DNA of 11,540 nt from a virus (IMGVR_UViG_3300029762_000045:1-11540); one strand, 5' to 3'. Counted from the first letter of the stretch, positions 3,746 through 11,540 are shown. Made by a program: numbers and translations. Notes: generated by a model not told the origin, from the letters alone.

Positions 3746-5041
3746 TCACGCAGTCTGGTTAGGCAGACCAACACCAATTGCCTCTGGTCGTACAGCACAT
3801 GCTGAATACCACACAGCAATACGGCACTTACCAGACAGAGTGTTGATATCACCCTGCGTTGCGAAGATGCCGTTAACACCAATGCCAGGAATGCTGAAGG
3901 AAGACGTTTTCATGCCAGCAAACAGTTCATGGGTTACCGGGATCGGCTGAGACAGCAGACGGATTGAGTCATCAGCCCAGAACACGTTAGCGGTGGTTGT
4001 TGCCACGTTCAGAACGTTTACCGGAGTGGTATCAGCAAGAGAGGTGTTTACGTTAGCGTAAGCCTTCTCTTCTTTTGTCAGTGACGCGTCATCCAGTGCA
4101 ATCGGCTTCGGCGTGATTTCGATGTGAGTACCATCGATCACACGGGTGATTGAGAAAGTCGCATCATCAGTCAGCACGTTCTTCGCCATCTGAGACAGGA
4201 ATTTCACACCAGTGAAGCTGATTTTGTCGCCGCGCTTAAATCCGGTGGTGGAGGATACGGTCACCGTTGCAACACGGTTGTCGACGTTCTCCTTGTTACC
4301 ATCGGTATCAAGGGTGTATGCCTGCGGCTTAAACTTCTGCGCTCCAGTCACAGTTACACCAGTAGCGGTTGACTTAGTAACTGCCGGAAGTTTCGGTGAG
4401 CGAAGAATTTCATCAAAGCCAGCAATCTGACGCTGAATAGTACCGTTGCGATACGCTTCTTCAGGAACGCGCCCAAAGATGTCACCATCTACCAGGTTGC
4501 GGCCTGCTTTGCGGTAATCGTCAGGGTTCAGGAAGTAACTGATGCCCATATCGCGGTTTAGCTCACGGGAGAACATCAGGCGCTCTGCATCAGACACAAA
4601 ATCCCAGCCAGACAGGCCAGTAGATGGACCAATTGCGCGGGTATCGTGAACAACAAGTGAGCCCATTTCGGTTGCCTGTTTGGCAATTGCTGACTCAATG
4701 TTATTCGCCAGTTTTTTGGCGGATGCCTGGATGCGGCGACGGTAAGAACGCTCATCACGCAGGTCATCTGCACGAAGCTCGAAGAAATCGTTATCCGGAT
4801 CACCCATGTTGCATTTCACGGAGAGTTCCAGAATCCCGGTTGCGTTGCCAGTTAAATCCCAGCCAGTCTGGGTTGGAGCTTCCTGCTCAACAGGCATCCA
4901 CACGGTGTTGCTTGAACGCTGCATGGATTCTGCCGGAGGGGTGTATTTTGTCACTTTGGACGCCATTGGCGTCAGGTTCTGGACGGTTTCGATGATTTCA
5001 TCCAGAGCATACGTGACCAGTTGACCTTCATTTAATGCCAT
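3746..5041 (-). CDS. 5: Major capsid (coat) protein (P22 gp5 homolog)
   Basis: 431-aa ORF starting [20 protein letters not shown], with high identity along its length to P22 coat protein as I recall it. Start overlaps the scaffold stop (TAATG). Confidence 0.95.
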
Positions 5042-8131: not shown

Positions 8132-9631
8132 TTAAGTTCTCCGTGCGATGGGCCTGATTGGGGCTGGTATCTTTTTCTCTTTTGGCTTTTTGATGTCGCG
8201 CATCATTTTTGCGAAGCGGCGCATCATGTATGCATAGCGAACGGCGGATAGCACGTCGTCGTTAAGCTTGACGATTTTCCCGTTTTCATCACGGTGATAG
8301 AGGCGGAACTCCTCAAAGAATGGCTCACAGGTGTTGAATACTTTGAAGCGACCGTCGAGCATCATGTCTCGCAATTCAGTGATGCCAGGCTCAACAGCAT
8401 TACCGCCATCAGGCCATGTCGCATGCTCCTGCAACATCATAAAACCAGCGTCCGCGTACTGCCATTTGAGCTGCTCACCGCCGCCCTTCTCGTGCTGGTT
8501 TCCGTCATGAGGCCATGCGGTTGGCACTTTATGCGCCCATGATTTAACGGCTCCCCATGCCTGAACGGCTGTTTTTTCTTTCGCCTTCCAAACGCGTGAA
8601 AGGTAGATTATGTCTGCGTCCTTATCCCACCAAAGCTGAACCTGCGCCTGTGGGTGATCCCATCCGAAATCCATCCCGCCAATTACGTAGAAGTGATCAG
8701 GACACTCGAACGGCTGACACTTAATTGTCTCTTCCGGTATCTGGAAGATTCGACCACTACCCATCGTAGGAATACCGCGAGCACGCGCCTCTCTCTCATG
8801 CTCAGGATAGGATGCGATGATTTGCTCTTTCTGCTCGTCGGTGTAGTGCTCAGCGTCATAGATGGTCATGTTGACCACTTTCTGCGACTTGCTGGGATTC
8901 TTCAGGAACTTGGTAACAACGTCAGACATCCCCATCAGCGGGGTAAACGTCAGAATTGAGAATTGCCCGTATTTGTTGGTACGGGTAAGACCTTCGCCAT
9001 AAATGCTGTATGGTGGCTCTTCGTCAAACCACACGCCGTGGATTGTGTCACCCTGCCAGCGAGCGCGGCCTTGCGAGTATGGTTTGAAGTAGCAGATTGA
9101 AATGCCATCTTCAACGCCATCAGCCGTGTGATGCTTAACCAGAAGATGATCAACAAGGTTCGGAAAGAAAGGAGACTTCTTCCAGCTAATGATGTCTTCT
9201 TTAGGTATGGAACCGTAGCCTGGCTCATCATTCTCTTCGATACGACCACACAGGATGCGTTGAGTCGTTTTGGTTACAGTCTCGTTTGTCTCGCCGCCAA
9301 TCCAGAAGACAACAGGCTCATAGAAACGCTTACCTTTCCACTCCCCACCATATTTACCATCAGCCGGATAGCCTTTTGTTCCCGGATAACGCCCGGTAAG
9401 GTGAAACGCGACTTCAGCAGCCCCAGTAAATGACTTACCAAGCTGGTTACCAGCCATAAAACAGCGCTCTGGATAGTCATGCCCGGCGTCGATGAACTCA
9501 CGCTGTTTGCTGTATGGCGTAAATTCATATAGCAGGTGTGTGTTCCGGTAGTTCTCTTCTTCTTCGAGTAGCTCGAGCAATTCGATTTGCTCTTCGTCGC
9601 TCAGGTTATCAAGAATCGCGTCCAGTTCCAC
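8132..9631 (-). CDS. 2: Terminase large subunit (P22 gp2 homolog)
   Basis: 499-aa ORF, the same length as P22 gp2, starting [28 protein letters not shown]. Overlaps the 3' end of the small terminase by 23 nt. Confidence 0.95.
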
Positions 9632-10097
9632 GGTTGAATAGCTCCTTGATACGAGAGCGTCGCTTATCGCGATCTCCCTTATCAGGTGTCACGTCTTCAA
9701 CTTGCGACTGCTCTTTGAGGCCCAAATCACGGGCGATGATGTTAGCGTTGAGAAGGTCAGCGGCTGCGCCAGAGAATTTCTGGTCGTAGATGACCTGCTC
9801 TGCTCGCGTAACGACTTCAGATAAATCTTCTCGCAGGCGATATGTGCGCCATGTTTCAAGCGTCACATCAATGAACAGAGTGAGGCCTGTAATAGTCATC
9901 GCTCGCATCTTGGCGATAGGCTCTTGTATCACTTCACCCTGATACGAGAACGCCTTCATCTCCCATAGCGGGTTAGCTTCTACCCACTCGAAGTATTCAC
10001 AACAAGCAGCCCACAGCGCCTCAGGCGATTCGAATTTAGGATTTCGCCCATGACTACTGCGGGCCTCCCAAAATCGGTTGCCCTTTGGTGCTGCCAT
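9609..10097 (-). CDS. 3: Terminase small subunit (P22 gp3 homolog)
   Basis: [50 protein letters not shown]... is essentially the P22 gp3 sequence. Start placed at the second ATG to give 162 aa as in P22; the ORF track begins two codons earlier (MNM, 10103). Confidence 0.93.
9805..9830 (-). other. pac site (headful packaging initiation site) inside the small terminase gene
   Basis: Minus strand reads GAAGATTTATCTGAAGTCGTTACGCG, encoding gp3 residues EDLSEVVTR. This matches the P22 pac sequence as I remember it (about 22 bp, GAAGAtTTATCTGAAGTCGTTA), at the expected place in gene 3. Confidence 0.7.
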
Positions 10098-10120
10098 ATT
10101 CATCTCACTTAATTGTCATT

Positions 10121-10300
10121 TCAGGTTAAGGACTCTTTCGCGCCTTCAATCAGTGACTGCTTCAGCAATTCGAGTGTGCCAATCGCCTCGCATAAACTGA
10201 TTTCACCATCGTAATCATGGATGACGCTTTCAAGTCGCTCGTATAGCTCTTGAGTAATTGGGAATTTCTTCTCCTTACCAAGATCAACGACGCTTGTCAT
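10121..10300 (-). CDS. Hypothetical small protein, 59 aa, acidic and predicted helical
   Basis: ATG at 10298-10300 with AGGA 8-11 nt upstream; TGA stop at 10121-10123, 17 nt before the terS start region. Translation MTSVVDLGKEKKFPITQELYERLESVIHDYDGEISLCEAIGTLELLKQSLIEGAKESLT. Below the 60-aa cutoff of the supplied ORF track. Confidence 0.5.
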   Translation of the reverse strand: MTSVVDLGKEKKFPITQELYERLESVIHDYDGEISLCEAIGTLELLKQSLIEGAKESLT

Positions 10301-10309
10301 AGAGGATTC

Positions 10310-10597
10310 CTATAATTTTGAATATCCAGACTCAAATACCTCAGCAGGAGAATATGATTCATATCCATCCTCATAGACAACGTAATAGCCTCCAGACATT
10401 GGTCGGTGCTTACAGATATATTCCGCGCTAACATCAAATGCTGCGTATTTCTTATCATCCGGATGAATAATTGCCCCATAACTAGAAGAGCCAGTCTTAC
10501 CAGACTGATCTGGGTTTGGCTTATGTTCTATAGAGCCAATCTTCAGGGCGCGAACTTTTTTGTGGCACTGGTATCTCGGCATTTCTTGTTCAGTCAT
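10310..10597 (-). CDS. Hypothetical small protein, 95 aa, with two Cys-His-containing motifs
   Basis: ATG 10595-10597 lies 3 nt after the stop of the upstream ORF, with GGAG 10-13 nt upstream. Translation MTEQEMPRYQCHKKVRALKIGS...YICKHRPMSGGYYVVYEDGY... No family recognised. Confidence 0.6.
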   Translation of the reverse strand: MTEQEMPRYQCHKKVRALKIGSIEHKPNPDQSGKTGSSSYGAIIHPDDKKYAAFDVSAEYICKHRPMSGGYYVVYEDGYESYSPAEVFESGYSKL

Positions 10598-10600
10598 CTC

Positions 10601-10843
10601 TTACACTCCGGTAGTGAACAGGTCTAACGCTTCCTTCGATTTACGCACCGCTTCGATAGTGCGGGTCGTGATATCTGAATTAGCGCCGCCTGACTGGAAG
10701 TGAATTTTGAATAGCTCAAGCTTCAGCTCATCAGTGCCAATGAATTGAAATGCTTCTTCTGCGGCTGCGTTCTGGTTCATGACCAGTTTGTAAATCTCTA
10801 ACTGGAATTTCTGTTCTTCAGTCATGGGAATAATCTCTGCCAT
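10601..10843 (-). CDS. Hypothetical small protein, 80 aa
   Basis: ATG 10841-10843 with GGAG about 7-10 nt upstream; first gene of a tightly packed three-ORF run leading into terS. Normal GC content. Confidence 0.6.
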   Translation of the reverse strand: MAEIIPMTEEQKFQLEIYKLVMNQNAAAEEAFQFIGTDELKLELFKIHFQSGGANSDITTRTIEAVRKSKEALDLFTTGV

Positions 10844-10950
10844 TGTTGGCTCCGTTTATCCGTTAAAAGGGATATCAGTTAAGTTATCCCGTGTAGGGTA
10901 TAAGCCATTATCAAAGCCACTCTGTAGGGAATGGCTTTTGTGATGGCAAT

Positions 10951-10972
10951 AAAAAAGGCCGACTTAGCGACC
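10951..10972 (-). terminator. Putative intrinsic terminator downstream of the AT-rich small gene
   Basis: Minus-strand RNA reads GGUCG-CUAAGU-CGGCC (5-bp stem including one G-U pair) followed by UUUUUU, beginning 18 nt after the TGA stop at 10990-10992. Confidence 0.4.
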
Positions 10973-10989
10973 AATTTAATAATTAATTA

Positions 10990-11232
10990 TCAATAATGTG
11001 GGAATTGGTTACTATTTTGCAAGATAACCCAAGATGGGCGAAACAAGTCAAAAACATTGATGCTTAACAGGGCTTCATTTATTGATTTTTTTTCATCCGC
11101 AGAAACTCCGCGTCCTGCATTTGACATTACAAGCTGACCATTAACTATTTCACTACATTGTTTTACATAACTACCTGGCGGCATTGATTGAAAGTTACAT
11201 GTACCATTTATTATTTTATCAATTTCACTCAT
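10990..11232 (-). CDS. Hypothetical protein, 80 aa, in a markedly AT-rich segment (moron-like)
   Basis: ATG at 11230-11232 with GAGG 8-11 nt upstream; TGA stop at 10990. Visibly A/T-rich relative to the flanking structural genes. Translation MSEIDKIINGTCNFQSMPPGSYVKQCSEIVNGQLVMSNAGRGV...; no signal peptide. Confidence 0.55.
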   Translation of the reverse strand: MSEIDKIINGTCNFQSMPPGSYVKQCSEIVNGQLVMSNAGRGVSADEKKSINEALLSINVFDLFRPSWVILQNSNQFPHY

Positions 11233-11451
11233 ATCAACCTCGTCTAGTTGTTCGTCATAGATTCAGTGGCTGGCGGTGACGATTCCGCTTTTCGGGAGCT
11301 ACCCTAGCCACTGTTTTATTCTATCCGATGTCTTTCCATCAGTCCGCCACCACAAAGAATCTTTTTTGCCATAAGGCTGGAGGTTCATCTTTCAGTGGCT
11401 GCCAGTGTTATTTCCCTACTTACTGGCTTGGGTTGTTTCGCTGTACTGCCG

Positions 11452-11540
11452 TTAATTAGTGAGTCCGGGGATTACGGTTTGCCCGTGCTGTTCAAGGCGT
11501 TCAATTCTCGCCAGTAGCTGAGGCTTCTTAATTTTTCCCC
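11452..11540 (-). CDS. Possible 3' end of an upstream gene (partial, identity unknown)
   Basis: One minus-strand frame is open from the window edge for 28 codons (...GKIKKPQLLARIERLEQHGQTVIPGLTN) to a TAA at 11452-11454; the other two frames stop within a few codons. Too short to identify. Confidence 0.3.
   Translation of the reverse strand, partial: GKIKKPQLLARIERLEQHGQTVIPGLTN

Follow-up and report, generated by a model that had tools for sequence, protein, structure and literature searches.

The moron concept reportedly goes back to Juhala and colleagues and to Hendrix and colleagues, both in 2000; bor and lom of phage lambda and gene 15 of HK97 are examples. The locus described here raises the question of whether a small AT-rich gene in a prophage late region belongs to this class, and whether the expression signals around it are its own. 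The window, that is, the whole stretch of 11,540 nucleotides that was analysed (IMGVR_UViG_3300029762_000045:1-11540), comes from a P22-like (Lederbergvirus-type) E. coli prophage and comprises its late region, in which all genes lie on the minus strand (Table 1). The original prediction read the gene, here called ORF80, as a moron with a ribosome-binding site and a terminator of its own. We consider it likely that ORF80 is a horizontally acquired moron operating as proposed below, which is carried as cargo in a pre-built slot consisting of a -10-like TAGAAT element, an int-alpA leader RNA, and a shared terminator. The moron reading holds with respect to variable presence, foreign composition, mobility, and the existence of a terminator. 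It has to be amended in three respects: the terminator and the leader belong to the slot and not to the gene, a promoter and expression in the lysogen are presumptive, and the unit includes a structured RNA that was already catalogued.

ORF80 resembles the morons of lambdoid and P22-like phages in being an additional gene which close relatives lack and which lies between conserved ones, and in its deviant composition, compact layout, downstream terminator, and candidate promoter. It differs from classical morons in that the candidate promoter is weak and in that the terminator and the 5' leader are common to different cargo genes. A structured RNA leader is no part of the classical moron description. 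The predicted placement upstream of the terminase genes needs a qualification: three small genes, DUF2560 and two ORFs of 95 and 59 aa, intervene before the small terminase gene. These two ORFs (10121-10597, minus strand) are themselves of a low-GC, accessory type (the 95-aa ORF has a GC content of 41.7% and a GC3 of 35%) and match PHROG 11049 and PHROG 3546, neither of which has an assigned function.

Table 1. Coordinates of the features in the window, counted from its first nucleotide
Feature	Position	Strand	Remarks
Coat gene	3746-5041	-	Gene order in the window: coat, scaffold, portal, TerL, TerS
Large terminase (TerL)	8132-9631	-	
Small terminase (TerS)	9609-10103	-	gp3-type, PF16677
DUF2560 (hkbM) gene	10601-10843	-	
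Inserted cassette	10923-11321	-	Relative to the empty site of CUS-3; pairwise BLAST boundaries
Terminator-like hairpin	10951-10972	-	GGUCG-CUAAGU-CGGCC + U6; a weakened copy of the slot terminator
ORF80	10990-11232	-	80 aa, 8.9 kDa, pI 5.6; ORF call
Hairpin H3	11235-11250	-	Predicted (MFE fold); CAACU (11250-11246), loop AGACGA, GGUUG (11239-11235)
Shine-Dalgarno sequence	11241-11238	-	GAGG, 5 nt ahead of the ORF80 ATG
Site 2	11244-11240	-	GACGA in the H3 loop; second complement of the H2 loop
Site 1	11257-11252	-	UGACGA in the 3' tail of the Rfam model; predicted pseudoknot partner of the H2 loop UCGUCA
int-alpA RNA (Rfam RF02996)	11252-11314	-	cmscan, 63 nt
P1 stem	11314-11307 with 11270-11263	-	int-alpA, MFE fold
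Hairpin 1 (H1)	11304-11294	-	int-alpA, MFE fold
Hairpin 2 (H2)	11288-11273	-	int-alpA, MFE fold; loop UCGUCA, 11282-11277
-10-like hexamer	11318-11323	-	TAGAAT, 3 nt upstream of the first P1 base; read from sequence
Rha-family gene, 3' end	beyond about 11452	-	Runs off the window

Composition, coding status, and distribution of ORF80

ORF80 has a GC content of 34.6% and a GC3 of 24.7%, compared to a GC content of 49.8% for the window and to values of 0.50-0.53 (GC) and 0.51-0.59 (GC3) for the structural genes within it. It is the lowest-GC 243-nt stretch of the window (z = -5.8 versus non-overlapping windows); equally low values occur in 30 of 11298 windows of this size, every one of which overlaps ORF80. 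The low-GC block stops at the start codon, since the 89 nt upstream (11233-11321) have a GC content of 49%, and the inner segment specific to ORF80 (10973-11228) reaches 32.4%. Both GC content and GC3 confirm a gene much more A/T-rich than its neighbors. A ribosome-binding site had been proposed as well, and is present as a GAGG Shine-Dalgarno sequence with the start codon in a conserved register behind it.

The pattern of substitutions shows that ORF80 is a real protein-coding gene under purifying selection. Two homologs (P0002 and P0003) share 73-75% amino acid identity with it; dN/dS is 0.17-0.19, and 27-29 of the 46-49 nucleotide differences fall at third codon positions. When equally many changes were placed at random, no trial gave as few amino acid changes as observed, and about 85% of the trials introduced a stop codon. 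A frame of 79-80 codons is intact in 18 of the 19 fetched loci, which represent two insertion sites, so that the ORF is conserved as coding sequence. Frameshifted alleles form a minority. The coding strand contains an A8 run (11093-11086), and one allele (P0005, 15 member sequences) encodes a 52-aa product ending in DEKKINK, as expected from A9 instead of A8; in another (P0006/L029), the frameshift lies earlier in the gene. These alleles could be slippage mutants or sequencing errors.

As originally stated, the protein lacks a signal peptide and a recognizable family. No matches were obtained in Pfam, PHROGs, PADLOC, NCBIfam, or a PDB profile search, and neither a signal peptide nor a transmembrane segment (maximum KD19 1.10) nor an enzymatic motif was detected. 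An exhaustive phmmer search of 1.84 billion representatives returned P0003 as the only accepted relative; the remaining matches were long proteins hit in 4-13 stretches each and were discarded as composition artefacts. Searches of 50,697 phage GenBank records (blastn in distant mode plus tblastn) and of 185,579 species-representative genomes gave no match, and none of the protein, phage, and genome searches revealed a homolog outside Enterobacteriaceae. ORF80 is present in 16 of 5426 complete E. coli genomes, where it is annotated only as "hypothetical protein"; the DUF2560 flank occurs in 2548 of these genomes (full-length in 889) and this leader in 51. E. coli WP4-S18-ESBL-08 (NZ_AP022095.1, 1506079-1506321) has a cassette identical to that of the window.

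The ORF80 product is predicted to be soluble and mostly helical, with two invariant cysteines (C12 and C26). AlphaFold2, run on an alignment of four sequences, gave a low-confidence model with four helices (pLDDT 65), and the best Foldseek match of this model among the viral structures of BFVD had an E value of 1.6. For a small soluble helical protein encoded in a slot of this kind, binding to a host or phage protein is the most plausible mode of action, and would serve exclusion, anti-defence, or host takeover. Readings as a toxin-antitoxin component or a membrane protein were dropped, as there is no hydrophobic segment, partner ORF, or PADLOC match.

The cargo slot, its terminator, and its flanks

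ORF80 lies in a hypervariable slot between the lysis (Rz)/Rha genes and DUF2560/terminase. CUS-3 has no cargo there: conserved sequence ends at 10922 and resumes at 11322, and its two flanks are separated by 18 bp. In Sf6 and Huey, the slot is occupied by a different gene of 127 aa (gene 66 in Sf6, Phage_gp49_66, PF13876), with boundaries at 10944/11327. An unrelated 89-aa ORF is found in the Salmonella phage BIS08P22 with boundaries at 10972/11229, that is, homology to the window extends up to the first base of the terminator stem and starts again at the start codon. The metagenomic prophage L015 contains a DUF551 gene with boundaries at 10972/11235; its leader, which ends at 11235, is 98.6% identical to that of the window, and its terminator, which starts at 10972, is 98% identical. 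The DUF551, Sf6 gp66, and BIS08P22 proteins show no sequence similarity to ORF80. All three occupy the same position, from Rz/Rha to DUF2560 (hkbM), and the DUF551 and 89-aa cargos also have the same leader and terminator as ORF80.

Unrelated ORFs are swapped in exactly between a leader and a terminator that are 87-99% identical. Among 37 leader instances in the P22-type slot, the cargo is ORF80, DUF551 (71 aa), the 89-aa ORF, a 101-aa ORF, or a fifth ORF, and the same terminator follows the cargo wherever downstream sequence exists. Since different phages place unrelated ORFs between the same two elements, both probably act as expression signals and as homology arms for exchange.

ORF80 has also moved as a cassette, as indicated by a second location of its relatives. 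P0003, the 73%-identical homolog, lies between a Q-like antiterminator gene and the holin gene in L014-L017, accompanied by a related leader and terminator; homology to the window covers 11294-10946 and so takes in the ORF, the terminator, and a portion of the leader. The Q-holin interval of lambdoid phages is a slot for accessory genes and holds the stx genes in Stx phages. P0003 sits exactly in this slot, just after the late terminator, unlike ORF80 of the window, which is found at the other end of the lysis cassette. Taken together, the shared-flank boundaries and the second-site homolog identify the low-GC segment 10973-11228 as the cargo and the leader, with 49% GC, and the terminator as constant parts of the slot. 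Separate acquisition, as originally suggested, is supported by the deviant GC content, the absence from collinear P22-like phages, and this second insertion site in another prophage context.

The claim of a gene-specific terminator could be upheld only in part. A hairpin followed by U6 is indeed present after the ORF, with a stem (10972-10957, GGTCG/CGGCC) of five pairs including one G-U, a 6-nt loop, and T6 at 10956-10951. It is a constant part of the slot which unrelated ORFs share, and is not the gene's own. A stronger form, GGTCGCT(C/T)AGGCGGCC + T6, follows ORF80 alleles and unrelated cargo ORFs at other loci, including the DUF551, 89-aa, and 101-aa ORFs in other prophages. The copy in the window is weak, at about -6 kcal/mol and z = -0.5, and terminator-like sites number 4 in 2 kb versus 1.9 +/- 1.4 in shuffled sequences, so a single site is not beyond chance. 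The comparison across loci shows that the window terminator is a decayed copy of a conserved slot element.

Several further features were observed in the flanks. Just upstream of the DUF2560 gene, the conserved flank contains a strong hairpin of 10 bp (10913-10938, minus strand) with the arms AAAGCCAUUC/GAGUGGCUUU and no U-run after it. Its counterpart in CUS-3 is GAGACCAUUC/GAGUGGUCUC, so three pairs are changed on both arms with pairing kept. On the other side, a 126-nt block (11327-11452, minus strand) is 97-99% identical in CUS-3, Sf6, Huey, and L016, and is retained with or without a Rha gene upstream. The records of epsilon34 and g341c label this region "similar to the N-terminus of ST64T orf118" or GIY-YIG nuclease, and the block could be what is left of a gene interrupted when the cassette was inserted. 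An ORF of 29 codons (MNLQPYGKKDSLWWRTDGKTSDRIKQWLG, 11388-11299) enters P1/H1 of the int-alpA RNA and stops at the conserved UAG of GGCUAGGG. In Huey (L004), the slot cargo homologous to Sf6 gp66 (382-762) and a neighboring gene (997-1497) were deposited with the putative label "anti-CRISPR protein".

The int-alpA leader

The region upstream of ORF80 matches the int-alpA RNA over the full model (1-71) with 42.0 bits versus a gathering score of 35.8 (E = 3e-7 to 8e-7). The MFE fold reproduces P1, H1, and H2 (-28.8 kcal/mol, z = -2.4). The window leader shares with RF02996 the P1 stem, the two inner hairpins, the conserved CUAG and CGAAAAGCGG, and a pseudoknot between loop and 3' tail. It differs from the namesake in context, as it is found in the late region between Rha and ORF80, directly 5' of an unrelated ORF, and not with integrase/alpA; the motif is absent from the intA-alpA context of CP4-57 in E. 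coli K-12. In addition, the comparative data point to a cis-acting leader that reaches past the Rfam model and includes a third hairpin as well as, at the Shine-Dalgarno sequence, another site complementary to the loop. The whole leader comprises about 80-90 nt and continues as far as the Shine-Dalgarno sequence, with its end 3 nt ahead of the start codon.

The motif originates from a survey of 224 candidate RNAs (PMC5737381) and has the Rfam type "Gene; sRNA"; the main text of the survey does not mention it. The searchable literature assigns no function to it, and the sole other paper that mentions the motif merely lists it.

Matches above the gathering threshold were also obtained in L001, L002, L005, L007-L009, L011, and L015. 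A leader of ~85 nt with 72-89% nucleotide identity is found in phages of Enterobacter, Edwardsiella, Pantoea, Klebsiella, Pseudomonas, Shewanella, and Vibrio, in whose annotated records its end usually abuts a gene start. In IMG/VR, a pattern scan recovered 95 distinct instances. Behind each of the 69 distinct phage leaders, a Shine-Dalgarno sequence and an ORF start follow at a short, fixed spacing (about 20-45 nt from P1), and together the leaders precede 66 distinct proteins of 34 unrelated families, which include DUF1376, DUF551, HNH endonucleases, Bro-N, and many orphans. The 21-base core occurs exactly, and with the same architecture, in Acidobacteriota, Planctomycetota, Bacillota, Alpha-, Beta-, and Gammaproteobacteria, and Desulfobacterales. 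The leader is far more conserved and widespread than ORF80. In bacterial contigs (L149-L193), the core GGCTAGGNTNGNTNCCGAAAAGCGG mostly precedes an ORF, among them an integrase-like and a GIY-YIG-like gene; such conservation across phyla is unusually strong for an RNA core of roughly 25 nt.

The H2 loop has two complementary sites in the leader, about 25-30 nt (site 1) and 12-16 nt (site 2) ahead of the start codon. Site 2 lies in the loop of H3, and the GAGG Shine-Dalgarno sequence straddles this loop and the 3' arm, with its last two Gs in the arm. When non-overlapping complements of at least 5 nt between P1 and the start codon were counted for 47 H2-loop classes from phages and bacterial genomes, 44 had at least one and 31 at least two. 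In 1000 permutations of the loops, the means were 12.3 (at least one) and 2.5 (at least two), and the maxima 22 and 9. An earlier permutation test limited to phages likewise placed the complementarity of site 2 above every permutation. H3 itself is thermodynamically marginal (mean z = -0.66). A qualitative catalogue of hairpins nevertheless contains 28 different inner-stem sequences in which loops complementary to the H2 loop recur. MAFFT combined with RNAalifold predicted no pairs in the 33 nt before the start codons, because the alignment is not structure-aware, and this approach was replaced by the permutation tests and the hairpin catalogue.

Leaders that sequester the Shine-Dalgarno sequence in a pseudoknot are known from the preQ1-II and SAM-II riboswitches. 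The window leader resembles these as a small 5' leader with a pseudoknot that adjoins the ribosome-binding site and in which alternative pairings involve the Shine-Dalgarno region. The likeness is a functional analogy only, without sequence or structural homology, and membership in either class is not claimed.

Based on these features, we tentatively propose, at somewhat less than an even chance, that int-alpA is a promoter-proximal, cis-acting translational leader and not a trans-acting sRNA. As proposed, it would be larger than the Rfam model and would reside in a portable, cargo-swapping slot with a shared terminator, with cargo exchanged at points that lie no more than a few nucleotides from the start codon. 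The same tentative proposal includes a choice of the H2 loop between a decoy and the Shine-Dalgarno hairpin loop, and a distribution over phages and prophages that extends from Proteobacteria to Planctomycetota and Acidobacteriota, in which ORF80 would be one rare cargo.

Expression of the cargo and competing explanations

The -10-like hexamer TAGAAT upstream of P1 has, at a spacing of 17 nt, a best -35 element of CGGACT (11346-11341) with 3/6 matches, and a scan for consensus promoters called no site upstream of ORF80 in the window. In this region, the scan yielded 4 matches versus 3.2 +/- 1.5 in shuffled sequences. A match of the type TTGATA-16-AATAAT (11237-11210) was rejected as the ORF80 promoter because of its overlap with the start codon and its AT-rich surroundings, in which matches of this kind are to be expected. 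Across 55 independent contexts upstream of int-alpA, -10-like hexamers pile up at starts 15-10 nt before GGCTAGG, with 3-7 contexts per position from -15 to -10 versus about 1 elsewhere. At the position aligned with TAGAAT, L013 has an extended -10 element, TGaTATAAT. Expression of ORF80 from its own promoter is plausible for the window site from these sequence comparisons. At the second site (L014-L017), the cassette comes immediately behind the late terminator (L015, 4882-4906), has the late promoter upstream and no -10-like element, and its leader has diverged below the Rfam threshold. Own-promoter expression is hence not a constant property of the gene; the second-site arrangement would fit late-operon read-through rather than lysogenic expression.

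The late operon of P22-type phages is transcribed via gp23/Q antitermination. During lytic growth, ORF80 would, given its position, be transcribed by read-through of the antiterminated late operon. In the lysogen, its own weak sigma-70 promoter at the window site probably permits a low level of transcription, the continuation of which into the packaging genes would be restricted by the terminator. The leader would then set the translation of the following ORF, with the H2 loop alternating between site 1, a decoy just after P1, and site 2 in the loop of the Shine-Dalgarno hairpin.

Another possibility is that ORF80 is a passenger of the late operon, which has no promoter of its own, is read only during lytic growth through the late promoter antiterminated by Q/gp23, and is flanked by hairpins that the modified polymerase ignores. 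It would in this case be an accessory gene of the lytic cycle and not a moron expressed in the lysogen. ORF80 is part of the late operon and has its orientation, the promoter scan is silent upstream of it, and the second-site cassettes lack a -10-like element downstream of a late promoter, all as this explanation would have it. RNA-seq of the P22-like prophage Gally in strain LF82 detected no lysogen-expressed morons (PMC9928086), which points in the same direction; Gally has a different cargo in the slot, so its transcriptome says nothing direct about ORF80. Against a passenger stand the position of TAGAAT in a register enriched for -10-like hexamers over 55 independent contexts, and the extended -10 element of L013 at the same position. 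Moreover, constant read-through would make the conservation of a terminator immediately behind the cargo difficult to account for. On balance, we regard the passenger explanation as rather unlikely.

Two other explanations shift attention away from the gene. The int-alpA RNA could be a trans-acting small RNA that is the functional unit, with ORF80 as an incidental or decaying neighbor; its Rfam type, the far greater conservation and spread of the leader, and the existence of truncated ORF80 alleles agree with this. The purifying selection on ORF80 does not, nor does the lack of a terminator between the int-alpA motif and ORF80, nor the overlap of the second loop-complementary site with the Shine-Dalgarno hairpin. 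A Shine-Dalgarno sequence and start codon also follow at a fixed distance in most bacterial instances, and it is because the ORF start keeps this distance in all 69 phage leaders that a cis leader is favored; this explanation, in which the RNA and not ORF80 is the functional unit, is very improbable. Finally, ORF80 could be spurious, i.e., an AT-rich non-coding spacer or remnant that is open by chance, as it is a short, AT-rich orphan with a low-confidence AlphaFold model and no homolog outside Enterobacteriaceae. Such an origin is scarcely credible in light of a dN/dS of 0.17-0.19 over 46-49 differences, of which random placement would usually create a stop codon, of a frame maintained in 18 of 19 loci at two insertion sites, and of a start codon in conserved register behind the Shine-Dalgarno sequence. 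The preferred reading thus remains that of a moron carried as slot cargo.

ORF80 itself is an ordinary prophage accessory gene and not surprising. The int-alpA motif, catalogued since 2017, now represents the constant 5' boundary of swapped cargo genes, and the two covarying loop targets of the leader, one of which lies at the ribosome-binding site, make its mechanism directly testable. Should the leader prove to gate the translation of accessory and early phage genes in general, it would provide a handle for the systematic finding of cargo genes and would help to explain how these genes stay quiet or are switched on. In the related prophage L013, a match to isrJ, an Hfq-binding sRNA in Rfam, was additionally found at 2323-2401 on the plus strand (44.2 bits versus a threshold of 37), just downstream of a Q-like antiterminator gene.
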